A DNA stretch of 64,000 bases from sequence record NC_052661.1; one strand, 5' to 3'. A program made the translations under genes and the position numbers. Source of the stretch: Escherichia phage ukendt. The notes under the pieces are model-generated. The model saw nothing but the letters and a program-made list of their open reading frames with translations. It was not told where the DNA came from and made no database searches. Positions 2,692 to 55,201 of this stretch are shown piece after piece. How positions within the stretch are numbered: position 1 is the first letter of the stretch; the number at the start of each line of letters is the position of its first letter.

Positions 2692-3048
2692 TTAATAGTG
2701 CACACGAATCATTTTAATACCATAACGCAGCATGGATTCTTTTGCAAGCATGAATTTATCCCCAGCGGCGGGATTAGAAGTATGCACGAAAATGGTAGGT
2801 GAACCAAAGCAAGGTTTACCAAACGCCAAAAGTTCTTCCAGGCGCAGGAAAACATCATACCCATCTTGGTCAGAATCTTCACCCAAATCGTTGTCAAAAT
2901 GCCACTCGTCTACAAAACGATAACCCTTCTGCACCTCGTTCATGTAGCGAGAGGCAAGAAGTTCCTGTGATGTTTTAAACCAGATTGCATCTGGACAACC
3001 ATAATCTTTTGGATCACGTAAATCATCAAGCCAAATAATAGTACCCAT
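2692..3048 (-). CDS. hypothetical early protein
   Basis: 118-aa ORF in the co-directional early block; function not recognisable. Confidence 0.4.
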   Translation of the reverse strand: MGTIIWLDDLRDPKDYGCPDAIWFKTSQELLASRYMNEVQKGYRFVDEWHFDNDLGEDSDQDGYDVFLRLEELLAFGKPCFGSPTIFVHTSNPAAGDKFMLAKESMLRYGIKMIRVHY

Positions 3049-3058
3049 ATAACCTCCT

Positions 3059-3529
3059 CTAAGCTGGCATGATTAAAAAAGAACTCTCCACTTCAAAATG
3101 CCAATCATCTACAAGCCCTGATTCCCAATCCTTCTCTTCATGGAAAGAGCAAATCCAACGGTACATACCTGGCGGTGTATTCTCAACATCTTCTGGCAAC
3201 CCATAATCCAAAGCTGTCTTACCGTTCTCGGTAAAACCAGGATGGAGATTAGGAGCTTTCAGTACAGAAACCATACCTCCAACATCTACAGCCACGATCC
3301 ACTCTGTCATGTATGGGCTGTCATATTGAGGCTCATCAGAACCTACCTCAACAGCCTCTGTGCGTAAGATGATAATAGCCTGCTCTGTGATTGGGGCTTT
3401 GACAATATACCCGTGATCCTCAAAAAGATCGATAACCTCGAACTCATCGCCGTTTTCGATACCATAGCTCTTATTCAAAGAGATAAACTTCGGGTTATCA
3501 TCGTAAGCTTTAGTTACTTTAATTTTCAT
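3059..3529 (-). CDS. hypothetical early protein
   Basis: 156-aa ORF, acidic; tightly packed with neighbours. Confidence 0.4.
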   Translation of the reverse strand: MKIKVTKAYDDNPKFISLNKSYGIENGDEFEVIDLFEDHGYIVKAPITEQAIIILRTEAVEVGSDEPQYDSPYMTEWIVAVDVGGMVSVLKAPNLHPGFTENGKTALDYGLPEDVENTPPGMYRWICSFHEEKDWESGLVDDWHFEVESSFLIMPA

Positions 3530-3750
3530 TTTTCCTCCTTCACTTTAACCTCAAATTCTACAGGCTTACCCTCAATGTAAAAACACTGATACTCTGCCTT
3601 ATCATCCTCATCACGAGGCCAAGTTACCAAGGAGTTATAGCAATCTTCTGGTGCTTTGAAGATGGTTTTAGTCTCCACAGTAACATTCCCATTAAGTGTT
3701 GCCAATACCACCCACCCAGCTACAGGGATCATAGTGCCTCCACTTTCCAC
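3526..3750 (-). CDS. hypothetical early protein
   Basis: 74-aa ORF; 4-nt start/stop overlap with neighbour. Confidence 0.35.
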   Translation of the reverse strand: MESGGTMIPVAGWVVLATLNGNVTVETKTIFKAPEDCYNSLVTWPRDEDDKAEYQCFYIEGKPVEFEVKVKEEK

Positions 3751-3911
3751 GTTTTACCCTTATCAACCAAGGTCTTTGCTACAGCATACTCCTTCCCATT
3801 AACAATGAAATAATAAACTATAAAAGATTTTCCGATTGTTACTGTCTTAGTAACCTCTACGCGTTTAACACCTTGCATGTATTTCGCCTTACCGGAATAA
3901 AGTAAAATCAT
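3729..3911 (-). CDS. hypothetical early protein
   Basis: 60-aa ORF overlapping neighbours in the operon-like packing. Confidence 0.3.
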   Translation of the reverse strand: MILLYSGKAKYMQGVKRVEVTKTVTIGKSFIVYYFIVNGKEYAVAKTLVDKGKTWKVEAL

Positions 3912-4189
3912 TTTGCATTCCTCTTATTATTGATAACATCCATAGCAGTATATGGTTTATTAGTGCCATGATACTCCAGAATCATTGGAGAGCCTTCTTG
4001 CACTACTTCAAAAATACCATAAACAGAACTTTCAGCAAATACCATTTGCTTCGTGCCTTCATCGTTTACAACGAGAGAAAACTTCTTGCCTGTCCCGTTG
4101 AGGATCTCGTATTTCTTGCCAGCAGTGAATAATCCAGAGTACCACTCGTTATCTGTTGCTTTTACACACTTCAGGAAAGTCTTGATCAT
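3908..4189 (-). CDS. hypothetical early protein
   Basis: 93-aa ORF; start/stop overlaps with flanking ORFs. Confidence 0.35.
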   Translation of the reverse strand: MIKTFLKCVKATDNEWYSGLFTAGKKYEILNGTGKKFSLVVNDEGTKQMVFAESSVYGIFEVVQEGSPMILEYHGTNKPYTAMDVINNKRNAK

Positions 4190-4539
4190 TTCTTTTTGCT
4201 CCTCTTTTTAGATTTCTCATACAAACCTAACACAGCCGCCTCTTTTGCACAAGTAGGAACTGAAGTCATTCCTCTTCGTTTTGCTTCTGGTAGTTGCAAA
4301 GTCCATATTCCCCACCAATAAATTTGGTCTGCCGTGAGTGGTTCAGCCATTGGATCTGCCTCCTGCTCCTCAAGACGTTGCAACGCTTCTTCAATCTTCT
4401 CGATTGGTGTGTCAAAGACGAATGCCTCCGTATCAAATTTATCTTTCTTAGGAACTGATTTGGCTACTTTGAGAACCTCGTTTTTCGGTTTCTTAGTAAC
4501 GTTCTTTGGCTTTGATAACTTCTTCGGTGTTTTCGCCAC
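4186..4539 (-). CDS. hypothetical Lys-rich protein (possible nucleic-acid binding)
   Basis: GTG start at 4539..4537 with GGAGG RBS 6 nt upstream; very basic N-terminus and KKRSKKK C-terminus. Confidence 0.4.
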   Translation of the reverse strand: MAKTPKKLSKPKNVTKKPKNEVLKVAKSVPKKDKFDTEAFVFDTPIEKIEEALQRLEEQEADPMAEPLTADQIYWWGIWTLQLPEAKRRGMTSVPTCAKEAAVLGLYEKSKKRSKKK

Positions 4540-4732
4540 TTACTACCTCCATACGATCTAAAAAGTCATTCACAAATCTCCAGTAACGTTGACCTGTTCT
4601 AAGATCTTCATAGATAACCACAGGATCAAACACTTTAGATATTCCGGCAGGTTTTGGAAATTCCACTACCGTATATAAACCACCTTTTGCTACACAAGAA
4701 TAGGTTACGCCTGTAATTGGATAGTTGCTCAT
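4493..4732 (-). CDS. hypothetical early protein
   Basis: 79-aa ORF. Confidence 0.35.
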   Translation of the reverse strand: MSNYPITGVTYSCVAKGGLYTVVEFPKPAGISKVFDPVVIYEDLRTGQRYWRFVNDFLDRMEVVSGENTEEVIKAKERY

Positions 4733-4923
4733 TTCTTTACGTACTCCATGATTGGGGTATGGTCGCCAGTAAGTGTAACACGGCTGTAGGACACATCTTG
4801 TGTCTTCAGTGTATCAATCCACTCTAAGAAGTGTTCTTTCGCTTCTGTGTAGTTCTGTGTGCCTTTAACAACGTGTATACCATCTAGAGTTACACGGAAT
4901 ACCATTTGAATAACGTCTTTCAT
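4729..4923 (-). CDS. hypothetical early protein
   Basis: 64-aa ORF; 4-nt overlaps with both neighbours. Confidence 0.35.
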   Translation of the reverse strand: MKDVIQMVFRVTLDGIHVVKGTQNYTEAKEHFLEWIDTLKTQDVSYSRVTLTGDHTPIMEYVKK

Positions 4924-14545: not shown

Positions 14546-15661
14546 GTGGCAAATACATATTTAACTAACGTAGACTTTTCTGGAAAAGCTACGGAAGAGT
14601 CACTAGGTGCTCATATTGCTTACACTTTTGATTTTCAAGGTGGAGCGGCATCTGGTTATAATACCCCCCTTTTATTTAAGTCAGACGGATCTCCAGACAT
14701 AACTTTTGAAAAGTTAGAAGCTCTCACTAAAATGGGAGAAGATGTTACAGAGTTACGTAAAAGCTATATTCAACAAGTGATGGATCGCATTTCTGAAAAA
14801 GTGCGTGAAAAATTTGAAGCTGGTTGGGATTGGGTTTACGTTATTGATGCTGACTTCGATGCGAACGTTGCAATTTTCTGTTCAGATAACGGTATGTTCT
14901 CTGTTGGCTTTAAAGTTGACGGACTGAATATTGAAGTTGAAGAGGTTGCTAAACCTGTTGTTCGTGTTACTGATTATCAAGTTGTTGATGGTGATGTAAT
15001 GATCTCCATTGATTTCTTTGAGGACGTTTTAGACGATGCTTTGAGTAATCTCGTTAAGAGTTCCTTGAAACAAAGTCAAGTTAAAGATTATTTAGTGAAA
15101 GCTCACGCTAAAGCTAATACAAACTCTGTGGATGCAGAGGCTAACCCCGCAGGTGATAAATCTGCAAACACAACTGGAATCAATAAAGGAGAAACCCCTT
15201 TGGAAAATATCAACAAAGAAGAATTCCTGAAATCTGCTGAATTCCAAGAACTGATGAAAGCACAAATCGCTGAAGCTGTAGAAAAAGCAGCCGCAGATGC
15301 ACGTGCAGCCGCAGAACTTGAAGCACAGGAAAAAATCGCTAAGGCAGAACAGGAAGCAGAAGAACTTCGTAAAGCTGAACAAGCTCGTATCGAAGAAGAA
15401 TATACAACTGTTGTTAAATCCTATTCTTTCGTAGAAGAAGACAAAGTTGAAGCTCTCGTTAAATATCTGGTAGACAATAAAGATATCGCTGAAACTATCG
15501 TCAAAGCATTCGAAAAAGCACGTGCAGAAGTGGACGCAGTTAAGAAAGAATTTGGAACAGAACGTGGTGTTGACGTGATCAATACTCAACCTGTAGCTAA
15601 ATCTTCTTCTGAACTGATTAGTCAGAAAGCTGCTGAACTTAAAAAAGCCCAGAAACAATAA
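14546..15661 (+). CDS. prohead scaffolding protein (possibly with an N-terminal processing domain)
   Basis: GTG start overlapping upstream stop; C-terminal half is an Ala/Glu/Lys-rich coiled-coil; sits directly upstream of decoration and capsid genes. Confidence 0.5.
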   Translation: MANTYLTNVDFSGKATEESLGAHIAYTFDFQGGAASGYNTPLLFKSDGSPDITFEKLEALTKMGEDVTELRKSYIQQVMDRISEKVREKFEAGWDWVYVIDADFDANVAIFCSDNGMFSVGFKVDGLNIEVEEVAKPVVRVTDYQVVDGDVMISIDFFEDVLDDALSNLVKSSLKQSQVKDYLVKAHAKANTNSVDAEANPAGDKSANTTGINKGETPLENINKEEFLKSAEFQELMKAQIAEAVEKAAADARAAAELEAQEKIAKAEQEAEELRKAEQARIEEEYTTVVKSYSFVEEDKVEALVKYLVDNKDIAETIVKAFEKARAEVDAVKKEFGTERGVDVINTQPVAKSSSELISQKAAELKKAQKQ

Positions 15662-41159: not shown

Positions 41160-44100
41160 ATGGCAACATTCCCAACATATCCAGCAACGTCTCTTGAACA
41201 GGGCGTAGATCTGGTTATTTTCTCGTCTAACCAACTCCATGATGTTATTAATGGAAGTGCTACAGAGAGTATTGAAACAGAATCAGGGTTGATACCAACC
41301 CTGAGAAAAGCCCTTGTTGACAACTTTTTCTTTAAAAGCCCATTAGATTGGGCGCAAGGCACAAACGAAACAGTTTTTAACCAACTTCGTTATTTCCAGA
41401 ATGGAGTATTGAGCGGTTATTACTACGCCCCTAACGCTACATTGGTTAACCCAATCCCTATGCAAGGGACTCCAGTAGGAGATAACAACTGGGTATTGTG
41501 GGGACTGAAAACAGAACAATTGGCAACAGAAGTCACCCCTTGGGTATATTCTGGTGCAACTGGTTATGAAACAGTAATCAGTCCTCCCTACATCTTTGAT
41601 AGTGCTATTGTTACGATCAATGGTGTTATTCAGGTTCTGGGAGAAGCTTTCCGCATAGAAGATAGTAAGATCATCTTATCTGAACCTTTGGGACACGATC
41701 CTGCGACAGGACTGCCAAACAAGCTTTTTGCTTATATTGGTAAAATCGTAGCTTCAGCAGATACAGATCCTAACCTAGAGAATCGTCTTGTTAGTTTAGA
41801 AACAAAAACGGAAGAACTAACAGAAAGCATGGATAAAGTCCCTCTGCAAACTATTGCTCGTAAATATGGTTTGTTAGATGATGAGGTAGCTTATGCTACA
41901 GCGGGTCAATCATTAACAGGGATTAAAGCTCTGTATGATCCAGTAGCACAATCTTCCTACACATTGCCTCCTAACATTACAGGGACGTTAACATCTTTGT
42001 CTGTTTCTGGAGTAATGACTTATTCTGGTGGTTCTGTAGATCTTTCTGCACTAGCTGTTGAACGTGGACAATTTGTTCATTTACCTACAAGCTTTGGTAA
42101 TAACGTAACCTTGACAGCTAAAAACCAGACGATTGGACGTGGTGCTGGTCGATATCGTTGGGCTGGAAGTTTACCAAAAAGTATTTTGGCCTCCGATACA
42201 TTGGAGACAAGCGGTGGATTAGGTCCAAATGCATGGGTTCTGACCAATACAGAAGGACTGTTAACCCCTCGTGGTGGAACATACAACGATTTATTCGATG
42301 TTGTCTACTTGTCAGAATTTGCTAACAACACAACAACATATACCACACCAGAAGCAGCTTTCCAAGCGGCACTGTTAGCAGCAAAAGCTTCGAAAAGCAA
42401 GATTCTCGATGCTTACGGTTGCGATATGACTTTCACGACAAGCTCTTTTGATATTCAAGGTATCACTTTGCGTGGGGGTGTGTTCCGTGGTCAACGCGAC
42501 TATCGTGTGCAAAATGCTACAGTAGAAGGCACAACTTTCCGTAACTCTCGTGTTATGTATTGGGGTGGTGCTGTGCGCATGTTCGATTGTTTGTGGGACG
42601 GTGCTCCTCGCGCAGGTCAAGTTGGTAGCTTGGTATTCCAAGGCAACCCAATATCAGGTACTTTTGAAATTGATAATTGTACTTTTAAAAACGGGTTGTA
42701 TGGCATCCTTCAACAAGGAACAGGGGAACCAGTAACACGCGGTGTCTTCCGTAACCTTACCTTCATGGACATGCAAGGTGATGCAATAGAACTGAACGTC
42801 ATCAATAAACATTATGATGATGGTTGTGTGATTGAGAATATTTACCTGTCTAATATCGATGGGACTAACGCTCCTATTCCTCTGTCCAACTGGGGTATCG
42901 GTATTGGTGTAGCTGGTAAAGGACCATATGGTTACGGAATTCCTGATGATCAATATTGCAAGAATATTACAATTCGTAACGTTTTTGCAAAACGTTGTCG
43001 TCAGATTGTCCACGTAGAAGTTGGTCGTAATATTTCTATCGAAAACATTCATGGCGATCCAGATCAAACTGTATCTGTTGGAACAGGTTTGGCAACTGGC
43101 GCAGTTGTAATGTATGGAAGTAAAGATTTTACGATTGATGGTGTTTATGGAGAGCCTAAAACAGACGGTAGCACACTTGCAAGTAATATCCGTATGATTT
43201 ATTTGGAGTGGGGAACTAACGCAGTTCTGGACGAAGAGGGTAATCCGGTAGTTCCGGCACAGGGTAGACCTTCAAACCCATGCTTTAACTATTCTGTTCG
43301 TAACATTCACACCAAAACTGGGCGGGTTTTTGCAGGAGTTTCCGCTGGGCCAGGTTATGAAAACAGAGTCAGCTTTGAGAATATCCGTTGTGCTGCGTTG
43401 CAGTTGTTCGGTGTAGCTTCTTGGCTTTCAATGTCTAACATCACCTGTAATATCTTTGATTGTGTTGGTCAACCTGAATCTGGTCCAGGGACATTTTATG
43501 ATGGATTCTTCCGTAGAGAAAAATCTGTTCTTGAGATGGTTAACGTAAACTGTTACCCAGATGGCAAGACGATGGTTACTGGTCGTCCACAGTGGAGCCG
43601 TTGCCGTTACTCGGATATTCATCGTGTCAACTGTAATGTTGAAGCTAATATGTATACCAATATCGCAGGTGGTATTGGAGCTATTGTAGGGACAACTGGC
43701 AAAGTTTATTACTTAGAGCCTAACCCTAGCCGAAACATTGATGGGATGCATTTCCCAACAGGGAAGGAGTTTGACAAAGGGGATATGATAGTCAAAGCGG
43801 ATAATACGTTCTTCCTTGTAACAACAAGCGGGGCATACATTCCAGATATCCCAGCTTTCGGTATTCGAGCTACACAAGCAGGAGATACCTTCCTGACACA
43901 GAACTTGACTCCTAATGGGACAGCAACAAACGCTTCTTGGTTGTATCACTATCCTCTGTCAGCAGGAACACGTATCCGTATTCCTGGTGCTGGTGTAGGT
44001 GGAGCAGATTTGGACACAGTTATTACTCGTGCACCTTATCAAGATAATGATACGTGGACTAACCCAGTTAAAATAGACATTGCAGATCCAATTGTAACGC

Positions 44101-44213
44101 CTACGAGTGCTGGAGTTAGAATCAAAACCATACCTAACGATTCTAGTAATGTTTCTGTAGGTAATACTGCGGTTATTCGCCCAACACCAGTGGTAGATGT
44201 GCCAACAACCTAA
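41160..44213 (+). CDS. tailspike with parallel beta-helix domain
   Basis: 1017 aa; repetitive beta-helix-like segments (NCTFKNGLYGIL, NITIRNVFAKRC, NISIENIHGD); shares N-proximal modules with two other spike genes. Confidence 0.6.
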   Translation: MATFPTYPATSLEQGVDLVIFSSNQLHDVINGSATESIETESGLIPTLRKALVDNFFFKSPLDWAQGTNETVFNQLRYFQNGVLSGYYYAPNATLVNPIPMQGTPVGDNNWVLWGLKTEQLATEVTPWVYSGATGYETVISPPYIFDSAIVTINGVIQVLGEAFRIEDSKIILSEPLGHDPATGLPNKLFAYIGKIVASADTDPNLENRLVSLETKTEELTESMDKVPLQTIARKYGLLDDEVAYATAGQSLTGIKALYDPVAQSSYTLPPNITGTLTSLSVSGVMTYSGGSVDLSALAVERGQFVHLPTSFGNNVTLTAKNQTIGRGAGRYRWAGSLPKSILASDTLETSGGLGPNAWVLTNTEGLLTPRGGTYNDLFDVVYLSEFANNTTTYTTPEAAFQAALLAAKASKSKILDAYGCDMTFTTSSFDIQGITLRGGVFRGQRDYRVQNATVEGTTFRNSRVMYWGGAVRMFDCLWDGAPRAGQVGSLVFQGNPISGTFEIDNCTFKNGLYGILQQGTGEPVTRGVFRNLTFMDMQGDAIELNVINKHYDDGCVIENIYLSNIDGTNAPIPLSNWGIGIGVAGKGPYGYGIPDDQYCKNITIRNVFAKRCRQIVHVEVGRNISIENIHGDPDQTVSVGTGLATGAVVMYGSKDFTIDGVYGEPKTDGSTLASNIRMIYLEWGTNAVLDEEGNPVVPAQGRPSNPCFNYSVRNIHTKTGRVFAGVSAGPGYENRVSFENIRCAALQLFGVASWLSMSNITCNIFDCVGQPESGPGTFYDGFFRREKSVLEMVNVNCYPDGKTMVTGRPQWSRCRYSDIHRVNCNVEANMYTNIAGGIGAIVGTTGKVYYLEPNPSRNIDGMHFPTGKEFDKGDMIVKADNTFFLVTTSGAYIPDIPAFGIRATQAGDTFLTQNLTPNGTATNASWLYHYPLSAGTRIRIPGAGVGGADLDTVITRAPYQDNDTWTNPVKIDIADPIVTPTSAGVRIKTIPNDSSNVSVGNTAVIRPTPVVDVPTT

Positions 44214-44278: not shown

Positions 44279-46303
44279 ATGAATTTAACAAGACCTAATA
44301 GTGCGATAGCCGATCTGGTAGAAGCTACTTATCGAAAACGTCGCAGTTTTGAGGCAGGTTTTACATTACGTAATTCCCGTGAAGTTTTGCTGTTAGCAGC
44401 AGAAGGGAATTATTACCAATGGAAAGGAACTTTTCCTAAAGTAGTTCCAGCAAACTCTACGCCAGCCACCACAGGTGGTATTTCTTCCCTTGCATGGCAA
44501 AGTGTTGGGACCGCTGATGATATAGCAATTATCAATGCCAAGTTTACGGCAGTGCAACAACAGATCGATGATTTGTCAGAAGCAATACCTGAAGCTGGTA
44601 AATCGGCTTATCAGATCGCACTTGATAATGGTTTTGTTGGAACAGAAGCCCAGTGGCTTGCTTCTTTGAAAGGGGATACTGGTGCTCAACTTAATATTAA
44701 GGGATCATTAGCAAGCACTAGTGAACTACCATCTACAGGTAACATTGCAGGAGATGGTTATATCGTAGGTGATGTGATTTACGCTTGGGATGGTTCTGTT
44801 TGGAAACTTATTTCTTCTCTTGGGCCAGAAGGGAAATCAGCTTATGAGGTATGGTTGGCAGATGGTAATACAGGATCTGTTTATGATTTTCTTACCTCTA
44901 TAAAAGGTGATAAAGGTGATGTTGGTCCTACAGGGCCACAGGGAGCACCTGGTGTTAACGCCAACGGTTTTGATTATCGTGGGGATTTGCCTTCTACAAG
45001 TAACTTACCACAACCTAACTCTGAAAACGTAAGCCAAGCGTACTCTATCGATGGTAATCTTTATGTCTCTAATGGGACAGCTTGGGTCAACATGGGTAAT
45101 ATTGTTGGTCCTCAAGGCCCACAAGGTGAGGCAGGTAAAGACGGTCTAGATGGAACAGATGGAGACGAAGGGAAATCTGCATATCAAAGTTGGCTGGACG
45201 CTGGTAATGAAGGGACAGAAGTAGATTTTGTTGCTTCCTTAAAAGGAGAGAAGGGTGACAAAGGAGATAAGGGAGATCCTGGTCCACAAGGTGAACAGGG
45301 TGTTCAAGGTATCCAAGGTCCGGTTGGTGCAGGTCTTTCTGTAAATGGTGAATTGTCAGATGTTTCAGAATTACCTTCTGTAGCGGAGGTTGGTGATGCC
45401 TACATTGTAAAAAATGACCTTTACGTGTGGATCGACGACAATCAAACGTGGCTCAATGTAGGTAGTTTGGGTGGTAGATCTATTACAGCTAAAGGTCATG
45501 TTGCAAACGGCGAAGCTCTTCCTGTTTATAATAACTATGGTGATGCTTACTTAACTGAAGACACTAGTAATCTTTACATCTATACCTACGATCAAGACAC
45601 CAATTCCGCATCTTTTGTTGACATGGGAAGTATTAAAGGCGACAAAGGTGAAAAAGGGGATAAAGGAGATAAGGGTGATCCTGGAACAAACGGAACCAAC
45701 GGTACTGATGGGACCAACGGTAAGGACGGCGCACAGTGGTTTGTAGCAACAACTAATCCAGTCGCAGGAGACGGTGTTATCAATGATTACGCCTTCAATA
45801 CTACCACTGGAGCAGTGTTTAAGAAAACAGATTCTTCTACGTGGACGCTTATAGGAACTCTTCCTAGTATACCAGAAGCCCCTCAAGACGGCTTGACGTA
45901 TGGTAGGTCTGATGGAAACTGGATCGAAATATCAGGATCAGATCCTACGGAAGCTATAACACCAACTAGAGTTACAGCAGGTTTCATGGAACTTGAAACA
46001 ACTACTGCCAACTCTGGAGCATCTTGGACTCCTTCTGGAACTTCCAATATGTATGTTGTTACAGTAACTGATGCTCTGACAGTTGGAGCATGGCCTGGTG
46101 TCACTGGCTCTACAAAACCTAAAGCGTTTTCAGCAATGATTTATTTGATTCAAGATACAACGGGACACACGGTTACACTAGATGCGTCTTATGGAGCACT
46201 AAATGATACAGAAATAGCAACTACTGCTAACGCAGTAACAATTTTGCAATTAACGTATCCTGGTGTGGGTGATATCGTGGACATGGTTGTTGTAACACGA
46301 TAG
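44279..46303 (+). CDS. tail fibre with collagen-like Gly-X-Y tracts and repeated fibre modules
   Basis: 674 aa; Gly-X-Y runs at residues ~209-229, 277-299, 322-352, 452-483; three copies of a ~29-aa module GKSAYQ..L..G...E..W/F L.S.KGD. Confidence 0.6.
   Translation: MNLTRPNSAIADLVEATYRKRRSFEAGFTLRNSREVLLLAAEGNYYQWKGTFPKVVPANSTPATTGGISSLAWQSVGTADDIAIINAKFTAVQQQIDDLSEAIPEAGKSAYQIALDNGFVGTEAQWLASLKGDTGAQLNIKGSLASTSELPSTGNIAGDGYIVGDVIYAWDGSVWKLISSLGPEGKSAYEVWLADGNTGSVYDFLTSIKGDKGDVGPTGPQGAPGVNANGFDYRGDLPSTSNLPQPNSENVSQAYSIDGNLYVSNGTAWVNMGNIVGPQGPQGEAGKDGLDGTDGDEGKSAYQSWLDAGNEGTEVDFVASLKGEKGDKGDKGDPGPQGEQGVQGIQGPVGAGLSVNGELSDVSELPSVAEVGDAYIVKNDLYVWIDDNQTWLNVGSLGGRSITAKGHVANGEALPVYNNYGDAYLTEDTSNLYIYTYDQDTNSASFVDMGSIKGDKGEKGDKGDKGDPGTNGTNGTDGTNGKDGAQWFVATTNPVAGDGVINDYAFNTTTGAVFKKTDSSTWTLIGTLPSIPEAPQDGLTYGRSDGNWIEISGSDPTEAITPTRVTAGFMELETTTANSGASWTPSGTSNMYVVTVTDALTVGAWPGVTGSTKPKAFSAMIYLIQDTTGHTVTLDASYGALNDTEIATTANAVTILQLTYPGVGDIVDMVVVTR
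45242..45334 (+). repeat. collagen-like Gly-X-Y coding repeat
   Basis: Encodes LKGEKGDKGDKGDPGPQGEQGVQGIQGPVGAG. Confidence 0.6.
45632..45727 (+). repeat. collagen-like Gly-X-Y coding repeat
   Basis: Encodes IKGDKGEKGDKGDKGDPGTNGTNGTDGTNGKDG. Confidence 0.6.
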
Positions 46304-46306
46304 TAG

Positions 46307-46331
46307 AAGCCCCGAAAGGGGCTTTCTTTTT
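46307..46331 (+). terminator. rho-independent terminator
   Basis: AAGCCCC-GAAA-GGGGCTT then TCTTTTTA. Confidence 0.7.
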
Positions 46332-46344
46332 ATGGAGGGTTTAA

Positions 46345-49017
46345 ATGTTTCCAATTCCAATATTTACTATTATGACCAGCACTGGTGTCGTTCCTCTGCC
46401 AGCGGGTATTGTTAAAAAAGTAATCACTTTAGATTACCCAGACAATGCTGGTAATTCTAACAGCAGTTTAGCAATTTTGCTTAACGATGGTAGATTGTTT
46501 ACTCAAGGTGCAAACCTTTTTGGTGAGATTGCAGATGGAACTCGTAGTGCACGATTCAATAATTTCCACTTAGCTTCTACTGTAGTAGCGGATGTGTTTA
46601 CCGCAGATCGTTGTTTTGTTATTAAAACTAATAGTGGGGGATGGCAATATTCAGGATTGACAGCAGGGTTGGTAGGATCTATAGCAGCAGGTGGTGCGGA
46701 TGCATGTGTAACTACTTGGACCAGCTTTCCATCTGTAATAACGGGGACTATCTCTTTAGCCAATCTTAAAGAGGTTAAGGGAGGATATAACAACACTCTC
46801 TGGTTAATGAATAGTGGTGTTCTTTATGGATCGGGTCAAAACACAGTAGGCAGTTTAGGTGCAAGTACTACTAACGAAGTTTCTACTCCTCGTCAAATAA
46901 CGAGTGCAGCAGTTGCTTTTGATGCAGGTTACAACCAATGCTCTTATGTCAACAATGTGGGAACCTTGCGTGTTTGTGGAGCCAGCAAAGGTTTAGCAGG
47001 TAATAATAACACAACAAAAGCTTTTGTAAATGCTACGATATCCACTACTGAAACAGTGTATGTCAAAGATTACATCAATACCGTTTCCCAGACAATAGTT
47101 GTAGGAGATACCTCCGGTGGAACTGGTACAACAAACTACCTTTATGTTAGATCTAATACAGAAACAACCTACACTAAGCTGGATACCTTTGCAGCAGGTT
47201 TCTCAACATGGAAGTTTCCACCGAGCCGTCACTCTTTTTTCGTTGGGATTAATAATTCCTTGTGGGCTATCGGTAAGAACTATACGGCAAACTTAGGTCT
47301 GGGGTATGATTCTGCGAGCGGAGATCCACTCCAAGTGGGAAAACCAGTTAAACCTGAAGGAGTGGGTTCCTGGGATATAAACAAGCTCACAAGCGTTCAT
47401 ACGCTGAATATGGATGTTACTAACCAATTAGGTTATCAAGGAACATTTTTCGTTTATAATGGAAGTATGTATTATTCCGGTATTTGGAAAGATGGGAAAG
47501 CGTCATATCTGTTCAATAGCGGTCTAAACTATAATAAATTCACACCAATAGCAAGCTCCGTGATTACGGGTGATGTGCTGGCAACTAGCTTAACTACAGA
47601 TTCTTTAGGAATTTGTATTGTAGGTGGAACTAAACAGTTGACACATTCTGTTAGCCCAGAAGGAGGTAAACTTTTCAATATTAAATACACTTCTTCTGCC
47701 CCTGCAAACATGACAATATCATCTACTGGCTTAATGACTTTCCAAGCAGAAGGTGGTTTTGATGCAGGTATGACAGCCTTAAACGCTGAAGGAACAACTC
47801 TATCAGATATCTCTGGAGGATATGCTTCAACATTGAGCGTTTACACCCCTAGCTTATCTGCGATGGATGTAGGAACAACACAAACAATGGTAGCAGAAAT
47901 AACGCCAACAGGAGCAGCAAGCTTACCTGGTATGGTTGTTGAGTATACAACTACAGATCCTAGTGTTGCTACAGTAGATCCTACAACTGGCGTAATAACT
48001 GGAGTTGGTGATGGTGGTTGTAGAATTGGTTGCACAGCTACGTATCAAGGTGTTGTTACCGCTTCTGATAGTTCTTATTTAACGGTGAACGCTGTTGCGG
48101 GAAAGGAGTTAGCTCCATCTCCGAGTAGTAGTTTAACGGTTCTAAACGGATATTTCAACCACTCGGCAGATGGGGCGATTACGTTCCCAACTTTATCGGG
48201 TACTGTTACACCAGCTAACTTTGTAGTTAAGGTGGATGACGTTGTAGTTCCTTCAAGTAAAGTAATATTTAGAAATAAAGCTTTCTCTACAGTGGATAGT
48301 TATCCAGCAGGAGAATATAGACTGGCTATTGAATTTGCAAGTGCTTCTGTAGTTAATAATGTTGAGGTATCTATGGAAGCAAATCCAGATCTTTTAGAAT
48401 TGTGGGGCGGCAACAGGATTGGTTATTCTACAAGCCCAGCCTCACAGTTCTTAAAAGGTTGTGCTAACTTAAGACGAATAACCTCTGATTGTTTTAGTAA
48501 CACATCTTACACCGGAACGTCTATAAGTGGTATTTTCTCTGGCTGCACAAGTTTGACAGCTATCCCTGAAGGATTATTCAGCGATACTTTATTTCCTTCG
48601 ATGACAACAATGTCAAGCACGTTTGAAGGTTGTACGTCTTTAACATCTATTCCTTCTGATTTATTTAAAAATTTATCAAAAGTTACAAGATACTCTTACA
48701 CCTTTAAAAATTGCACCTCTCTTGCAGAAGTTCCAGCCGGAATGTTTGACAATATTCCAACGAAAGTAACCTCTTTAACAGCTACGTTCCAAGGTTGTTT
48801 AGCACTTACAGATTTTAATAAAATCTTTAATGACAACCCAGGGTTAACGGTTTGTGGTCAACGTGGAGCATTGTCTTCTTTCTTTAGTGGATGCACAAAT
48901 CTTACAGGAACAGGAGTAACATTAACAAGCACATTAGGTGGAGCAGCTAATAGTTACCTATTCAGGTATTGCACAAAACTTTCTGATTATAACAACATTC
49001 CTTCGGGTTATAAATAA
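46345..49017 (+). CDS. multidomain adhesin-like tail protein (RCC1-like repeats, Ig-like segment, BspA-type leucine-rich repeats)
   Basis: 890 aa; N-terminal repeated G-x-N-x-x-G-x-L-G units; central TTTDPSVATVDPTTGVITGVGDGG segment; C-terminal repeats of F.GCTSLT.IP..LF. Confidence 0.5.
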   Translation: MFPIPIFTIMTSTGVVPLPAGIVKKVITLDYPDNAGNSNSSLAILLNDGRLFTQGANLFGEIADGTRSARFNNFHLASTVVADVFTADRCFVIKTNSGGWQYSGLTAGLVGSIAAGGADACVTTWTSFPSVITGTISLANLKEVKGGYNNTLWLMNSGVLYGSGQNTVGSLGASTTNEVSTPRQITSAAVAFDAGYNQCSYVNNVGTLRVCGASKGLAGNNNTTKAFVNATISTTETVYVKDYINTVSQTIVVGDTSGGTGTTNYLYVRSNTETTYTKLDTFAAGFSTWKFPPSRHSFFVGINNSLWAIGKNYTANLGLGYDSASGDPLQVGKPVKPEGVGSWDINKLTSVHTLNMDVTNQLGYQGTFFVYNGSMYYSGIWKDGKASYLFNSGLNYNKFTPIASSVITGDVLATSLTTDSLGICIVGGTKQLTHSVSPEGGKLFNIKYTSSAPANMTISSTGLMTFQAEGGFDAGMTALNAEGTTLSDISGGYASTLSVYTPSLSAMDVGTTQTMVAEITPTGAASLPGMVVEYTTTDPSVATVDPTTGVITGVGDGGCRIGCTATYQGVVTASDSSYLTVNAVAGKELAPSPSSSLTVLNGYFNHSADGAITFPTLSGTVTPANFVVKVDDVVVPSSKVIFRNKAFSTVDSYPAGEYRLAIEFASASVVNNVEVSMEANPDLLELWGGNRIGYSTSPASQFLKGCANLRRITSDCFSNTSYTGTSISGIFSGCTSLTAIPEGLFSDTLFPSMTTMSSTFEGCTSLTSIPSDLFKNLSKVTRYSYTFKNCTSLAEVPAGMFDNIPTKVTSLTATFQGCLALTDFNKIFNDNPGLTVCGQRGALSSFFSGCTNLTGTGVTLTSTLGGAANSYLFRYCTKLSDYNNIPSGYK

Positions 49018-49020
49018 GAA

Positions 49021-49048
49021 AAGGAGCCATTTGGCTCCTTTCTTTTAT
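49021..49048. terminator. bidirectional terminator between the convergent structural and replication modules
   Basis: AAGGAGCC-ATTT-GGCTCCTT hairpin flanked by an A-run upstream and T-run downstream. Confidence 0.7.
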
Positions 49049-49073
49049 AAAAACTCTTTATAAATCAATAAGA

Positions 49074-49955
49074 TCAGAACGGAATATCATCGTCGAAGTC
49101 CATTGGAGGTTCTTCTTGATTACTTGGTTCTGGTTGTGGTTCAGGTTTCTTCTCTTCTTTCTTCTCTTCTTTCTTAGGTTGTTCTGCGGAACCACGGATG
49201 GCAGCAGCAACTTTATCAGACAGAGCCAGAACTTTACGAGCAGAGTCAATCAGATCTTCTACAGATACAGTCTTAATGGTATGGTCTTTACAAGCATTGA
49301 GAATAGCGTGACCAACAGATGCCCCAAGATCATAATCATTAATATCAACACCACGAGATTCAGCAACTTCCGATTTCAGCGTGACAGTTGCAGATTGAAC
49401 AACCCCAGCGATATCGAAAGCATCGCCTTTAACACCATTACGAATCAGTTCCAGTGCACCATTTACTGCGTGACCAGTTTCCAGACCTACAGTATCACGT
49501 TTTTTATAGGATTGCTTAGGAGCAGCATCGTTGGAACCCTTATTGCCAGAAGATTTGTTAGACTTCTGAACACCATCGGTAGACAATACTGTAATACGAG
49601 ATTTTTTAGTATTGTAGTAAGTTTTACCGCCTTTATTATCAACGCGATCAATATCAATACTTACTTCTACACCTTTTTCAATAGTGATCCAATTATCACC
49701 TTCTTTGACTTGCAGGTTTTCATAACCTTCTTTCAGTTCAATGTCACCAAGAGAAATCCAAACACCTTTCTCATCTGGTTTAGCACCTTTCTCTTTCAGA
49801 ACAAGAGAGGCTCGGTGAGTTGAAACAATCGTTTTTCCTTCCCAATGAAAAGTTTTAGGTTCAGCGAATTTATCCAGTTTAACGTAGTCTACGATACCAG
49901 TTGCATAAGTTACGGTTTTGCCTTTACGATCAGTTTCAGTATTAATTACGGACAT
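49074..49955 (-). CDS. ssb: single-stranded DNA-binding protein
   Basis: Gly/Pro/Glu-rich linker and C-terminus DFDDDIPF, identical in form to the acidic tail of bacterial SSB. Confidence 0.8.
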   Translation of the reverse strand: MSVINTETDRKGKTVTYATGIVDYVKLDKFAEPKTFHWEGKTIVSTHRASLVLKEKGAKPDEKGVWISLGDIELKEGYENLQVKEGDNWITIEKGVEVSIDIDRVDNKGGKTYYNTKKSRITVLSTDGVQKSNKSSGNKGSNDAAPKQSYKKRDTVGLETGHAVNGALELIRNGVKGDAFDIAGVVQSATVTLKSEVAESRGVDINDYDLGASVGHAILNACKDHTIKTVSVEDLIDSARKVLALSDKVAAAIRGSAEQPKKEEKKEEKKPEPQPEPSNQEEPPMDFDDDIPF

Positions 49956-50409: not shown

Positions 50410-51003
50410 TTACCAAGGAATATCATCTTCTTCCAATCTGGTATCTATTTGAGGTGGACGTGGAACCTTAACCTCTTTCACAAAACGAAGATATGGGAAA
50501 CGTGTAGCAATTTTAATAACATGTTTGGCATCTTCTCTAACATCTTTGTGCAAGAAGCAGATCCCTGTTTCCAAAGTTGTTTCAAAATCTTTAGAGTAAT
50601 AACAATCCTTTCCATCAAATGCAGCCTGGCAGATAGACAGATCAAACTCATTTAGAAAGGTTGTCATTACGCTTGGTTCCATAATCATAAGGTTGCAAAG
50701 CTGACCATCACGTTCAAACTCAAAAACGTGTTTAAGACCAGTAACACCCTCATAATTGTCAGAAGCCTCTTTGTTTCCTAGTTTACGAACATTAGTTCCC
50801 ATCAAAGCAGATGCAATCAATTCTTGTATTTGCTCTTCTGATCGATGTGCAGGAAGGGATGTGTAGAAATCCAGATCACGTCCAGCAATATCAAGAATAC
50901 GCCAATCACGAACAGCACCGCCAGCCAAGACAGAATTAGGATCAGCGATCTTTAATACGGTAAGAATCTCTTTGGCAATATTGATTTGTTTTGATTTAGT
51001 CAT
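50410..51003 (-). CDS. minimal nucleotidyltransferase (CCA-adding-enzyme head-like) with SSB-like acidic C-terminal tail
   Basis: LAGGAVRDWRILDIAGRDLDFY matches the GGxVRD...DxD signature of CCA-adding/poly(A) polymerase head domains; 197 aa; ends EEDDIPW. Confidence 0.55.
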   Translation of the reverse strand: MTKSKQINIAKEILTVLKIADPNSVLAGGAVRDWRILDIAGRDLDFYTSLPAHRSEEQIQELIASALMGTNVRKLGNKEASDNYEGVTGLKHVFEFERDGQLCNLMIMEPSVMTTFLNEFDLSICQAAFDGKDCYYSKDFETTLETGICFLHKDVREDAKHVIKIATRFPYLRFVKEVKVPRPPQIDTRLEEDDIPW

Positions 51004-51631: not shown

Positions 51632-54600
51632 CTAGTGACAGGACGCCCAGGAGTTACCCACATCATATCCGGCAGTAAGCTGAACATTAAGATTGTAAAA
51701 TTCTCCAGCCTTAGTAACAGCTAAAGCAGCAAGTTCACCTGCCCGACTATAGGCTGTAAACCATCCACCTTTGGGAGATTCATGAATGTTAGCCCAAATT
51801 TGCCCTGTCTCTTTTTCCTTATTATGCTTCCATTCTTCAACTTTAGCAAGGCATTCTTTATCAATTTTCTTTTGTTCTTCAGGATCGTCTACTTTCTTCC
51901 AACCTAATGATTCAGGTGAAAACCATTTAAATTCTACAAGGTTACGAGAAACTTCAAGCTGGGCTTCATCGTGATATGCAATCATTTGTTGCACGAAGTC
52001 TTTATTCTTCCAGTCATCTTTAAAGAAGTCAACACTTAGCCCTTCTTCTTCGATCATGTCGTCATAAATAACCATTGCACGTTTAGCACAGATAACCCCA
52101 CCACTTTGGAACAGAGAGTTAAGAATCGCGTGAGCAGAACGAGTAGGAACCTTACGACCGTCAATACCCAAAACATACTGTTTACCAGTCTTAACCCAGA
52201 AATCGTTTAAACGTTCTTTAAGACGCGCCAGTGGGAATGCAGCTTCCCAGAAAGCATCGAACACCAGTTGCCCTGTGTATTTATCGCTACCAATTGTTTT
52301 AGCAACCTTGTCTGCTTGAGCGCCGTACGTGCAGTTACCTGTCAACGTGATAAAACCATTCTGACGCATAACAAAAGATTCATTCTTGGTTGAGATACAG
52401 AATACATCTGTTACTCGTGAAAAAGCTTTTGTCAACCTCTGTCCTGAAATAGTTTGTCCGTTATTGATTGCCAACGTTAACATGCCATCTTTTTGAACAG
52501 AACCATACGCAATATTACCTGTCATATTGATAGCCAAAGAAACAGCGTCGCTAATCTTACCTTTCTTTTGACGGATAACAAGACTGCCGTTTGGACGCTT
52601 ATGACCATCTGCCATCCAGAATGCCTCTAAGAATGCTTCCAACACAGCTTGACCTTGATTAGCAATTAATGTAGACCAGTCCACTTCGTGCTTATTTTGA
52701 CCCACTTCAACGCCACATTTAGTCAAAAATTCCCTAAACTGACTCTTATTAGGACGTAATGAATGCATCGTTCCAGATACATACTCGTCAAATGTGAAGA
52801 TATCTCCCACAGCCTCACGTGCTTCTTCTAAGAATTTTTTCTCATCTTGATCTACCGTGACTGTAATACCCATTACTTTATTTCTGGCTTTGCCAGACCA
52901 CTTATAGTAGCCATCCGAAAGAAGCCAGCCTAAGAAACGACCTTCTTCCACTGTTAGAGTAGACACCACACCAGATCGCCCTGCTGCAATTATGTTTGAC
53001 TCCGAGTTTAAATCCTCTGTAGATCTACGCTCCACTTGCATATACTTAACATTGTTACCATCTGATCGCATAGTTTTTCTCTGTGCGTTAATCCACATAT
53101 GATCGTTAGTAACTTCTACTTTGAACCACTTGTTACCGAGAGAGACAACTTCTGCATCGTTATAGTCCCACAGCTTAAGAATAGGGGTATATTCGTAAAG
53201 AGCGGTGTGAGTATTATAAGATAAAACTTCATCCCCTACAAAAAGATCTTTACGTTTCTTCCAACCCGTTCTTGTTAACACTTCCGTATTATCTACAGGT
53301 ACACAACCGTATTTAACGCTCTTAGCAGGACCACGTTCAAACTTACGTCCAATAATATCAGTAATATGTTTTGCCATCATAGTATGCACATCGTTTGGTT
53401 TTTCTAACAGAAGTGCATTACAGTAAGCATGATCAGGATTATCATATCTCCACGTATAATGCGACTCAATCTTCGCCTCTAATGAATCAAAGTCATAACC
53501 AATCTGGAAGTATTTAGGAACCTCTACACCAAACAGGTTACGCATTTGCCATCCAAACAAAGAGGTAACACGAGGAATATTGGCTACAGACCTATGCTTC
53601 ATACGAGAGGTTGCTGCATCGCATGTAGCCGCTGGCGTAGGTATACGTCCATCTGCACGAACTGCTGCCAAGAAACCTTTGTTGTATTCTTGATCTTCTT
53701 CGTCTTCTTCCCAATCAGCACCACCGCCTAAAATAGAGTTCCTACGATGCTTATACGTTAAGTATTCTACAATCTGCGTAGCATAAGGAAACTTCTCACC
53801 CAAAGCTTGCAGGTTAGGACAAATTTCTTTTTCCTGACCTTTGGTAAAACATGGGTTAGTCAATACTTTAAGACCGCGACCTTTACCTTTTGCTATACGC
53901 TCTTGAATCTTCCTTTCCAAGGTTTCGGGTGTGCACTCCAGATGATCACAACGATCCTGACAAAAATTAGAAGATAGAGTTTGCTCAACGTAAGCTCGAA
54001 TACCTTTCTGAAGTTCTTCCTCACTCTTTTTAATTTTGGTGCCAGATTTAAGCGTCAAGTCTTTATCTTTGTATTCAGACGGTACCCAACCTAATCCTAC
54101 AAGCCAGTTTTTAATATGGGTTGTATCGTTCAATGTTGCAGGGATGTTAGGATCACATAGAGGCTCATCTGCTGCAACTGGCAGTTTCCACTCTTTCCCC
54201 AACATAACTAACCACCAATCTCCATCCCTCTCTTCCAAATGACCATCATGTTTCTTAGCAAAATTGATCATATGGTTAGTTGGCTCTAAGTTCTTTTTAA
54301 TTTGCAACTTAGGTGGAATAAAAGCCTTAAGATAACCTTTTGTTGCTGGTTTAGGTGGCAAAATAGGCTCAACGAGTAAACGAAGACGCTCCATTTCTGC
54401 ATCCAAAAAAGCAAGGTTCTCTTCTGCTTGCTTCATGTTAAAAGCAAACCCACGGTGTTCCTGGCGTGTAATAATGTCTGCTACACGTTGTTCAAGTTCA
54501 AATGGACCTTCCCATTTATCATAATCACCCCACTCTTCCATAAGGTAATTATATACGCTCGTATTGGCTTTGTTGTCATAGATACAGTAATAAAGCATAT

Positions 54601-55201
54601 CAGCAGCAAAAGTCTTAAATCGATCTTCTTCTGGAATCTCTTTACGGAAATCTATTTTTACATCACCTCCTGCCTTTCGAGAAAGTGCTGCCAAGCTATG
54701 TCCTGATTTGCCCTCAATCTTTCGATCTGGGTTTAACACTTTACTCAAAATCAAGGAGTCAATAAGTTTTACCTTATTTTTGCCCCACGTATTATATTTA
54801 ACACTGTAATCTAAGCCATAAAACAGTTTTGTAGCCAACCAGTCATAGTTGATACCGTTGTGAGCCACAGCCATTTCAACCAGATATTCAGGCTTATCTT
54901 TAAAATAACCTTCATGATTAATAAAGTCTGGGAAATCTTTTAGTTGAAAATGTGTGTAATCTTGCGCCACATACTCTTTAAGAACATATGTGTATTTGCC
55001 ATCTGACTCTTCATAAGGACGCCCATCAAAGATGTATTTAGGGCCATCGTGGAAAGCTACTATTTCTCCTGTTTCATGGTTCTCTAAGACAATACAGTGC
55101 ATTTGAAATGTGTCTTTGAGACGATAAGGACTAGCTAAATAATCGATAGTGTCATTATTCAACAAGCCGTTTGCTTCAATATCCCATGTAAACTTACTCA
55201 C
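51632..55201 (-). CDS. family A DNA polymerase with 3'-5' exonuclease domain, interrupted by an intein
   Basis: N-terminal DIEANGL exonuclease motif; motif B reconstituted as RGPAKSVKYG-CTYGAQADKV after removing residues 633-956; motif C YHDE; GTG start overlaps the stop of the upstream methyltransferase. Confidence 0.85.
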   Translation of the reverse strand: MSKFTWDIEANGLLNNDTIDYLASPYRLKDTFQMHCIVLENHETGEIVAFHDGPKYIFDGRPYEESDGKYTYVLKEYVAQDYTHFQLKDFPDFINHEGYFKDKPEYLVEMAVAHNGINYDWLATKLFYGLDYSVKYNTWGKNKVKLIDSLILSKVLNPDRKIEGKSGHSLAALSRKAGGDVKIDFRKEIPEEDRFKTFAADMLYYCIYDNKANTSVYNYLMEEWGDYDKWEGPFELEQRVADIITRQEHRGFAFNMKQAEENLAFLDAEMERLRLLVEPILPPKPATKGYLKAFIPPKLQIKKNLEPTNHMINFAKKHDGHLEERDGDWWLVMLGKEWKLPVAADEPLCDPNIPATLNDTTHIKNWLVGLGWVPSEYKDKDLTLKSGTKIKKSEEELQKGIRAYVEQTLSSNFCQDRCDHLECTPETLERKIQERIAKGKGRGLKVLTNPCFTKGQEKEICPNLQALGEKFPYATQIVEYLTYKHRRNSILGGGADWEEDEEDQEYNKGFLAAVRADGRIPTPAATCDAATSRMKHRSVANIPRVTSLFGWQMRNLFGVEVPKYFQIGYDFDSLEAKIESHYTWRYDNPDHAYCNALLLEKPNDVHTMMAKHITDIIGRKFERGPAKSVKYGCVPVDNTEVLTRTGWKKRKDLFVGDEVLSYNTHTALYEYTPILKLWDYNDAEVVSLGNKWFKVEVTNDHMWINAQRKTMRSDGNNVKYMQVERRSTEDLNSESNIIAAGRSGVVSTLTVEEGRFLGWLLSDGYYKWSGKARNKVMGITVTVDQDEKKFLEEAREAVGDIFTFDEYVSGTMHSLRPNKSQFREFLTKCGVEVGQNKHEVDWSTLIANQGQAVLEAFLEAFWMADGHKRPNGSLVIRQKKGKISDAVSLAINMTGNIAYGSVQKDGMLTLAINNGQTISGQRLTKAFSRVTDVFCISTKNESFVMRQNGFITLTGNCTYGAQADKVAKTIGSDKYTGQLVFDAFWEAAFPLARLKERLNDFWVKTGKQYVLGIDGRKVPTRSAHAILNSLFQSGGVICAKRAMVIYDDMIEEEGLSVDFFKDDWKNKDFVQQMIAYHDEAQLEVSRNLVEFKWFSPESLGWKKVDDPEEQKKIDKECLAKVEEWKHNKEKETGQIWANIHESPKGGWFTAYSRAGELAALAVTKAGEFYNLNVQLTAGYDVGNSWASCH
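52334..53305 (-). mobile_element. intein (324 aa) with LAGLIDADG homing-endonuclease domain, inserted in polymerase motif B
   Basis: Starts CVPVDNTEVLTRTGW, T-x-x-H block (VTNDH), two LAGLIDADG-like motifs (LGWLLSDGY, LEAFWMADGH), ends FITLTGN followed by Cys. Confidence 0.8.

Follow-up and report, generated by a model that had tools for sequence, protein, structure and literature searches.

Which function does the gene that closes the structural module of Escherichia phage ukendt serve? In the 64,000-nucleotide stretch of record NC_052661.1 that was analyzed here (the window), this gene is a reading frame at positions 46345 to 49017 of the plus strand, which starts with ATG and encodes 890 amino acids plus a stop codon; the next genes lie on the opposite strand, and the first-pass annotation had delimited both the frame and its place in the module exactly. 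The gene as such is already known: it carries the RefSeq name "tail protein" and belongs to PHROG 11922, and it is 96 to 99% identical across 33 phage records. At the nucleotide level, the region is 99.4% identical to Phapecoctavirus DIJ07P2 and 96% identical to many Phapecoctavirus (Stephanstirmvirinae) coliphages, e.g., nepoznato, tuntematon, AV125/126, and ESCO5. Based on the analysis presented here, we propose, with a probability of roughly 60%, that the protein is a virion-associated accessory adhesin of the lateral tail-fiber apparatus and that it carries an exchangeable ligand-binding tip.

As defined by tblastn and homologue searches, the family of this proposed adhesin (hereafter, the adhesin) is built in four layers: an invariant N-terminal peptide, an optional RCC1-like β-propeller, a pair of immunoglobulin-like (Ig) domains that is kept, and a variable C-terminal module (Table 1). 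The tip of the ukendt protein was modeled separately, since Foldseek, when run against the PDB with the full-length model, mostly retrieved matches to the propeller and was uninformative on the tip. In this AlphaFold2 model of residues 585 to 890 (predicted local distance difference test [pLDDT], 90; predicted template modeling score [pTM], 0.85), a β-sandwich is followed by a leucine-rich-repeat (LRR) solenoid whose fold is nearest to TpLRR/BspA structures. The first-pass annotation had read F-x-G-C-T-S-L repeats from the C-terminus, and these are far above the shuffled expectation: [FL]x[GN]CxxL is present in six copies (residues 703, 731, 760, 787, 815, and 847) at intervals of 27 to 32 residues, against 0.02 expected and a maximum of 2 over 20,000 shuffles. 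With a degenerate seventh unit (FRYCTKL, residue 873), the unit lengths are 28, 29, 27, 28, 32, 26, and 18 residues, each unit beginning with [FL]x[GNY]CxxL. The β-sandwich at residues 589 to 695, which the first-pass annotation did not mention, matches no Pfam family and is conserved jointly with the LRR (89 to 95% in phiWec-type relatives).

Since the tip falls under both relevant Pfam cut-offs, its membership in the BspA/TpLRR class is argued from the predicted fold and from transitive homology and not from a direct profile score. A phmmer search with the tip against 1.84 billion representative sequences returned 15,423 relatives, 831 of them at an E value of 1e-30 or better, and relatives at E values of 1e-59 to 1e-95 exceed the LRR_5 or the DUF285 cut-off, with scores of up to 65.8 and 66.2 bits, respectively. 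The relatives that were sampled are large surface proteins with fusions to BACON, to Mfa-like fimbrillins or, in one case (P0156), to Tail_P2_I plus Big_2; the combination of BACON or Mfa-like fimbrillin with LRR_5 or DUF285 is typical of gut Bacteroidales. Matches in BFVD are mostly proteins of uncultured viromes named "BspA family leucine-rich repeat surface protein." On these grounds the BspA-type assignment of the first-pass annotation appears sound. Compared with the surface LRR proteins of this class (LRR_5, DUF285; PDB 6mlx TpLRR and 4fs7 BACOVA_04585), the adhesin tip has just seven units, is carried on a phage protein, scores under the curated cut-offs, and comes without a signal peptide or the context of a cell-wall or type IX secretion system (T9SS) anchor.

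Evidence on the role of the tip comes from its replacement in related phages. In a DNA alignment with phage Schickermooser, the two phages are about 99% identical as far as position ~47946, in the middle of the second Ig domain (Ig2), and about 78% identical from there to about 48097, the end of Ig2. The sequences are then unalignable across the C-terminal module, and identity returns at about 49038, past the stop codon and the terminator loop. The recombination boundaries at about 47946 and about 49038 are sharp. Schickermooser represents an allele B (phAPEC8_00180, Schickermooser_00178; P0008), whose proteins of 888 to 891 residues have the same flanks and are 96 to 98% identical to the ukendt protein over residues 1 to 584 but end in 307 residues unrelated to the LRR (hhalign probability, 0.2%). 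Allele A, which has the LRR tip, is present in 34 phage records; for the allele B tip, 31 records reach an identity of 95% or more. The two are thus roughly equally common, and about half of the sequenced Phapecoctavirus genomes have a different tip. Allele C, from metagenomic relatives, is a bona fide DUF285 LRR (E value, 7e-39) and a distant relative of allele A (hhalign probability, 73%; E value, 3e-5); allele D, from the metagenomic relative P0020, is an unrelated domain. The Seunavirus-type proteins (GAP31, 4MG, and Salmonella phages) and phi92 gp152 have no tip at all. The C-terminus is thus a swappable cassette that is filled by at least four unrelated modules, or by none, and that has been moved by recombination between phages. 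A conserved N-terminal part, nonhomologous C-terminal alleles, and sharp boundaries together form the pattern seen in modular receptor-binding proteins. C-terminal variation was noted previously for TfpM1 (890/891 amino acids), which is probably the product of the adhesin gene (PMC12695924).

In phiWec-type relatives with allele A (P0003 to P0007), the β-sandwich and LRR are 89 to 95% identical to those of ukendt, and the propeller is just 75 to 81% identical. A tip that is more conserved than the propeller would fit a recent lateral transfer of the tip or a strong constraint by its ligand; it is of note that this is the reverse of the norm for receptor-binding proteins. No hint of a target of a diversity-generating retroelement was seen, although no repeat search aimed at the template region was made.

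The allele B tip has no match to a Pfam family. It does match PDB 9occ, "Tail fiber protein gp17" (E value, 2e-20), and the head-spike fiber Rcc01080 of the Rhodobacter capsulatus gene transfer agent (RcGTA) (E value, 3e-14). The RcGTA fiber binds capsular polysaccharide, and only its N-terminal residues 2 to 10 are ordered, clamped on the spike base (PMC10218006). Because the allele B tip is homologous to receptor-binding fiber tips, the C-terminal slot of the family is probably a plug-in place for receptor-binding domains, one that in the window is occupied by the LRR. A precedent that seems to have arisen independently for such a design of anchor, Ig spacer, and C-terminal BspA-type LRR in enterobacterial phages is provided by tail proteins of Klebsiella P2-like prophages (ST16-OXA48phi5.4 QBP07953, 1,008 amino acids; P0156), which combine Tail_P2_I, Big_2, and LRR_5; the Klebsiella prophage gene adjoins a tail-fiber gene. 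The Klebsiella LRR is about 30% identical to the adhesin LRR over 185 residues. It is much longer (9 to 10 matching places per record) and passes the Pfam cut-offs, and the anchor is baseplate gpI rather than a short peptide and an RCC1 propeller. Since the cassette is exchanged and the allele B tip has receptor-binding homologues, the proposal of the first-pass annotation that the C-terminus is a binding module rather than a classical fiber gains indirect but fairly strong support. Many uncultured gut phages have genes annotated with BspA-type LRR modules, and we found no paper that characterizes one as a phage receptor-binding domain; a catalogue of receptor-binding domains of extracellular contractile injection systems (eCIS) names β-propeller lectins but neither LRR nor RCC1.

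These comparisons also bear on what the tip might bind. It is conceivable that the Ig domains and the BspA-like LRR stick to mucus glycoproteins or the animal extracellular matrix and enrich the phage near its hosts, the bacterium itself not being recognized; a decoration of this kind has been proposed for T4 Hoc. The Ig-like domains are indeed the sole globular element present in all family members, even in phi92 gp152 with its 202 amino acids, the nearest sequence relatives of the LRR are the surface proteins that join BACON or Mfa-like fimbrillin to LRR_5 or DUF285, the alleles are few and well conserved, unlike the variants of an arms race, and the phages were isolated from feces and wastewater. 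However, the allele B tip is homologous to domains that bind bacterial capsules or cap tail fibers, the same type of LRR is fused to baseplate gpI beside a tail-fiber gene in the Klebsiella prophages, and the adhesin gene lies in the tail-fiber locus and not in the head module. We therefore consider mere adherence to the environment unlikely. The first-pass annotation had gone as far as "non-canonical adherence," with mucin as an assay target, by resemblance to adhesins; no direct support for this was obtained, and the comparative evidence points instead to recognition of the bacterial surface within the tail-fiber apparatus.

Similar to what is proposed here for the adhesin, the RcGTA fiber and Hoc-type Ig decorations are flexible, anchored by a short terminal segment, and present their binding domains outward, outside the tail-fiber set. 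They are located on the capsid, whereas the adhesin locus suggests the tail, and the adhesin has no sequence similarity to T4 Hoc. ES17, a coliphage that binds mammalian glycans, is a podovirus unrelated to Phapecoctavirus, and this link was set aside. The presentation of Ig-like domains by virions is an established theme (Fraser et al. 2006).

How the protein would be held on the virion is suggested by its N-terminus, a feature that had gone unnoticed in the first-pass annotation. M1, P3, and P5 of the N-terminal peptide are invariant across all relatives examined, in the pattern M-[FYLI]-P-[IF]-P, and this includes phi92 gp152 and a 942-residue JohannJBalmer protein, both of which lack the propeller, as well as the 1,878-residue rV5-type protein. 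In phi92 gp152, the sequence MYPIPLFMSTTSASVV leads directly into the Ig pair. Pfam searches of the adhesin identified no known N-terminal attachment domain (Tail_spike_N, the T7 gp17 N-terminal domain, or Tail_P2_I), just this 20-residue conserved peptide, for which the pLDDT in the monomer model is low (46 to 66). Because the peptide is kept in the propeller-less relatives, is modeled with low confidence in isolation, and has a precedent in RcGTA, we suggest that it may dock the adhesin onto another virion component.

The Ig pair is supported by profile and fold. The threonine-rich Ig-like stretch of the first-pass annotation corresponds to two Big_2 (PF02368) stretches, with a score of 34.9 bits that exceeds the gathering score of 22.8; up to 8 of 40 residues are threonine between residues 481 and 560, the β-strands of the model span residues 411 to 583, and Foldseek matches the region to a Big_2 segment of LigA (E value, 8e-8). 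The pair is 65 to 67% identical in the two propeller-less proteins.

The relatives also agree in where they are encoded. phi92 gp152, PVP-SE1 gp040, GAP31_232, and the rV5-type bas58_0041 (1,878 amino acids) share with the adhesin the position before the strand switch and the M-x-P-x-P peptide, and in phi92, GAP31, rV5-type phages, and JohannJBalmer the gene is likewise the last of the tail-fiber locus, after a fiber gene, a placement that holds in four phage genera. The rV5-type and JohannJBalmer proteins were annotated as lateral tail fiber proteins by the BASEL authors, the 1,878-residue protein being labeled "lateral tail fiber protein with intimin domain." Beyond these common points the proteins diverge. 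phi92 gp152 shares the Ig pair (65% identity) but consists of 202 residues without propeller or tip; GAP31 and Seunavirus proteins share the propeller and the Ig pair (38 to 44% identity) but end after Ig2; and rV5-type proteins share the first ~190 residues (about 40% identity) but continue for about 1,700 residues of other domains. The β-sandwich plus LRR tip is found in none of the phi92, PVP-SE1, GAP31, and rV5-type relatives.

In JohannJBalmer (Justusliebigvirus, phi92-like), the 942-residue protein at the corresponding position (2093 to 4921 of its record) consists of a MYPIPLF peptide, the Ig pair (67%), about 450 residues of other sequence, and an allele B tip (91%). TfpM1 has been stated to be absent from Justusliebigvirus (PMC12695924); since the JohannJBalmer protein has the peptide, the Ig pair, and the allele B tip, this absence would hold solely for the propeller-bearing form. 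We also noticed the gene or homologues of it in records named as Campylobacter phages B15, C3, and A141 and as Pseudomonas phage PsgM04F (MG065650.1, MG065656.1, MG065672.1, and OR584014.1). B15 and PsgM04F have full-length copies with 91 to 97% protein identity, and C3 and A141 share single domains at 41 to 61%, like Justusliebigvirus and rV5-type coliphages; the host labels of these records look doubtful.

A second alternative concerns the form of the protein, which might be a classical homotrimeric tail fiber that is visible as a lateral fiber of the virion. This would agree with the name "major tail fiber protein 1" (TfpM1), given from VOG/Pharokka annotation to what is probably the same protein (890/891 amino acids; PMC12695924), with the RefSeq name "tail protein," and with the likeness of the allele B tip to the tips of so-called fibers. 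However, neither the Pfam and PHROG results nor the model contain a coiled coil, collagen, a β-helix, a triple β-helix, or a C-terminal chaperone, and Tail_spike_N or any other known N-terminal anchor domain is missing, unlike in both upstream neighbors. These neighbors do carry trimerization elements, namely, collagen repeats in the fiber and a sub-threshold Beta_helix match (16 bits versus 25.9) in the spike. Furthermore, the single chain was modeled confidently without partners (mean pLDDT, 86.6; tip pTM, 0.85), and propeller, Ig, β-sandwich, and LRR domains are each normally monomeric. A trimeric fiber is thus quite improbable, and we infer a nonfibrous, bead-on-a-string protein, i.e., a string of ordinarily monomeric domains.

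For the propeller, the fold named in the first-pass annotation is supported, but the series of motifs was overstated. The exact G-x-N-x-x-G-x-L-G motif is present in a single copy (residue 164) and was rejected as evidence; a looser G.N..G occurs twice within residues 1 to 410 against 0.45 expected (P value of about 0.07). The looser form is not above chance, and the propeller rests on profile and fold. Pfam RCC1 (PF00415) reaches 23.9 bits for residues 158 to 188, above its gathering score of 21.7, a single repeat at this level, and the RCC1-like domain PF25390 matches with an E value of 9e-11 and 42.1 bits, far under its gathering score of 150, which indicates that the propeller sequence is highly divergent from this profile. 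PHROG 4219 matches with an E value of 1.5e-35, and sequence matches in the PDB are RPGR, HERC2, and UVR8. In the full-length AlphaFold2 model, for which 34 homologues were used as input, pLDDT is mostly 80 to 95 for residues 20 to 410. The predicted fold is a seven-bladed RCC1-like propeller that is superposable on UVR8 (Foldseek E value, 1.2e-13; target-normalized template modeling [TM] score, 0.71; 413 columns), on HERC2 (likewise ~1e-13), and on RCC1 itself (1a12; 4e-9). Among relatives, it is present in Phapecoctavirus, in GAP31 and other Seunavirus-type phages, and partially in rV5-type phages, and it is absent from phi92 gp152 and the JohannJBalmer protein.

Indirect support for a place in the virion comes from phage W70, in whose particles mass spectrometry detected RCC1-type proteins of PHROG 4219 (PMC11370258). 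That the protein might not be on the virion surface and might act inside the cell or the capsid in "chromosome condensation," as the label "regulator of chromosome condensation" of PHROG 4219, 7220, and 16766 implies and as the W70 authors' report of similar virion proteins suspected of helping DNA encapsidation (PMC11370258) could be taken to mean, is highly improbable, given that the label merely carries over the eukaryotic RCC1 name, that Big_2 Ig and BspA-type LRR domains are extracellular or surface modules, that the tip is swapped with fiber-tip domains, and that the gene is placed in the tail-fiber locus in four phage genera. The label is a transferred name and is misleading, and there would be no reason to expect the guanine-nucleotide exchange or chromatin function of eukaryotic RCC1 in a phage propeller.

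Taken together, we favor an accessory adhesin of the lateral tail-fiber apparatus that would work as follows. The invariant N-terminal peptide (M-F-P-I-P...) would dock the protein onto another virion component; the seven-bladed propeller and the two Big_2 domains would serve as a conserved stalk or spacer, possibly with weak carbohydrate contacts; and the β-sandwich and the seven-unit solenoid would form the distal ligand-binding tip, a self-contained cassette that is swapped by recombination for the lectin-like fiber-tip domain of allele B or, more rarely, for alleles C and D. The LRR tip might bind a protein or glycan on the surface of the enterobacterial host, and this binding may help the phage to adsorb reversibly and play a part in its host range. 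The comparisons and models described above show how the domains are arranged, where the gene lies in the locus, that the cassette is exchanged, and that the alternative tip is homologous to receptor-binding fiber tips; attachment through the peptide, the monomeric state, and a ligand on the host are inferred from them.

Several observations weigh against this proposal. Of the three Pfam families named in the first-pass annotation, RCC1 and Big_2 exceed their cut-offs, but LRR_5 (PF13306; cut-off, 27.7) reaches just 15.4 bits with the whole protein and 19.9 bits with the tip alone, and DUF285 (PF03382; cut-off, 25) reaches 13.7 and 15.6 bits, respectively. The alleles are few, discrete, and well conserved, unlike the hypervariability typical of primary receptor-binding proteins, and the relatives of the allele B tip belong to fibers, which touches the monomeric-arm reading. 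The hairpin that precedes the gene comes without a visible promoter, so that expression may be low. In the literature, we found no proteomic, microscopic, or genetic placement of the protein in a Phapecoctavirus virion: the papers on phages BME3 and O177 contain no virion mass spectrometry, the text of the rV5 proteomics paper does not mention gp27 or gp28, and a 2026 cryo-electron microscopy (cryo-EM) study of phi92 does not mention gp152 and leaves fiber II unassigned. PVP-SE1 gp040 is listed among the structural proteins of that phage, although no confirmation by mass spectrometry can be read from the supplement.

LRR solenoids also serve as the scaffold of Toll-like receptors, of variable lymphocyte receptors, and of BspA adhesins in bacteria. 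A bolder version of the accessory-adhesin proposal, which we put forward only tentatively and regard as unlikely, is that a monomeric, peptide-anchored "arm" with recognition by an LRR solenoid in place of a trimeric fiber tip represents a distinct class of phage receptor-binding protein, of which this would be the first tractable example; the LRR might then bind an outer-membrane protein of the host rather than a glycan, and lectin-type tips could take its place on the same arm.

Table 1. Positions of the proposed adhesin gene, its predicted segments, and its flanking signals in the window
Feature	Position	Strand	Basis or remark
Ribosome-binding site GGAGG	46334..46338	+	6 nt 5' of ATG; direct sequence reading
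Complete coding sequence, 890 aa	46345..49017	+	Assigned to PHROG 11922 "tail protein"
N-terminal peptide, aa 1-20, MFPIPIFTIMTSTGVVPLPA	46345..46404	+	Candidate virion-docking segment
RCC1-like seven-bladed β-propeller, aa ~21-410	46405..47574	+	Predicted; Pfam, PHROG, AlphaFold2/Foldseek
Two tandem Big_2 Ig-like domains, aa 411-497 and 498-584	47575..48096	+	Pfam, model, LigA match
β-Sandwich, aa 589-695	48109..48429	+	Predicted; AlphaFold2 pLDDT 82-96; travels together with LRR module
LRR solenoid, TpLRR/BspA type, seven units of 18-32 aa, aa 696-890	48430..49014	+	Predicted; one Cys per unit
Exchangeable cassette (distal half of Ig2, full C-terminal module, terminator stem)	47946..49038	+	DNA alignment with Schickermooser
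Terminator-like hairpin between collagen-like fiber gene and adhesin gene	46306..46325	+	Consensus scan; 8 pairs (5 G-C), then T-run
Bidirectional terminator-like hairpin at convergence of structural (+) and replication (-) modules	49020..49041	both	Scan; 9-10 pairs, 5 G-C

The adhesin gene is the final plus-strand gene of both the structural module and the tail-fiber locus, and the downstream genes, from 49074 onward, belong to the minus-strand replication module. Its direct 5' neighbor is a collagen-like fiber gene (44279 to 46303, plus strand), which is preceded by a colanidase-like spike gene (41160 to 44213, plus strand). This order matches that of nepoznato, in which genes for a baseplate wedge subunit, a short tail fiber and its assembly protein, a colanic-acid-degrading spike, and a collagen-like tail fiber are followed by the orthologue, which RefSeq annotates as "tail protein," and by the opposed replication genes. 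In phage Schickermooser, the equivalent of the hairpin between the fiber and adhesin genes carries a terminator annotation. Since no sigma-70-like plus-strand promoter was seen between this hairpin and the adhesin gene, the gene is presumably expressed by read-through. No paralogue of any adhesin domain and no second M-x-P-x-P protein was found elsewhere in the 64-kb window.

Both upstream fiber and spike proteins contain a Tail_spike_N (TSP1/Gp66) attachment domain, which is N-terminal in the collagen-like fiber (residues 12 to 77) and internal in the colanidase-like spike (residues 302 to 361). This suggests a branched attachment scheme as in Ackermannviridae and CBA120-type phages. At the other end of the adhesin gene, nepoznato has an extra 432-nucleotide gene annotated "endonuclease" (14705 to 15126 of its record), inserted right after the tail-protein gene and ahead of the following one. 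The window lacks this gene at the corresponding positions 49049 to 49071, which would fit a mobile homing endonuclease at the boundary of the two modules.

Two further observations concern the replication genes. The family-A DNA polymerase (1,189 amino acids; 51632 to 55201, minus strand) has an insert of ~324 residues (residues 633 to 956; window positions 52334 to 53305) that looks like an intein. It starts with Cys where the DNA_pol_A match ends, finishes with ...TLTGN before another Cys, contains two LAGLIDADG-like motifs, and weakly matches the intein endonuclease PI-PkoII (E value, 0.0012); no Pfam intein family matched it. The 293-residue protein encoded just downstream of the adhesin gene (49074 to 49955, minus strand) ends in PMDFDDDIPF, the C-terminal tip motif of the E. 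coli single-stranded-DNA-binding protein (SSB). This suggests an SSB-like phage protein, which would putatively recruit the partners of host SSB. The neighboring nucleotidyltransferase-like reading frame (50410 to 51003, minus strand) ends in EEDDIPW, and neither of these two proteins has a Pfam match.

In summary, our search of the literature yielded no description of the propeller-Ig-β-sandwich-LRR architecture, the invariant N-terminal peptide, the optional propeller, or the precise exchange of the cassette with a fiber-tip domain, and nothing relevant on RCC1 proteins in Phapecoctavirus or on LRR-type phage receptor-binding proteins. For the phage propeller family, this work corrects the misleading label "regulator of chromosome condensation." Phapecoctavirus phages are candidates for therapy and biocontrol, and their host ranges, in one study 65 to 84 of a collection of 198 strains producing extended-spectrum or AmpC β-lactamases (ESBL/AmpC) (PMC10844046), are among the broadest of coliphages; the roles of individual gene products in their "Swiss-army-knife" tail are largely unknown (PMC8594841, PMC13450770). 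Two roughly equally common tip alleles on a near-identical scaffold provide a natural experiment for the mapping of host range and a ready site for tip engineering, and since several carriers of allele A grow on E. coli K-12 MG1655, the idea of an LRR-type phage adhesin is directly testable.

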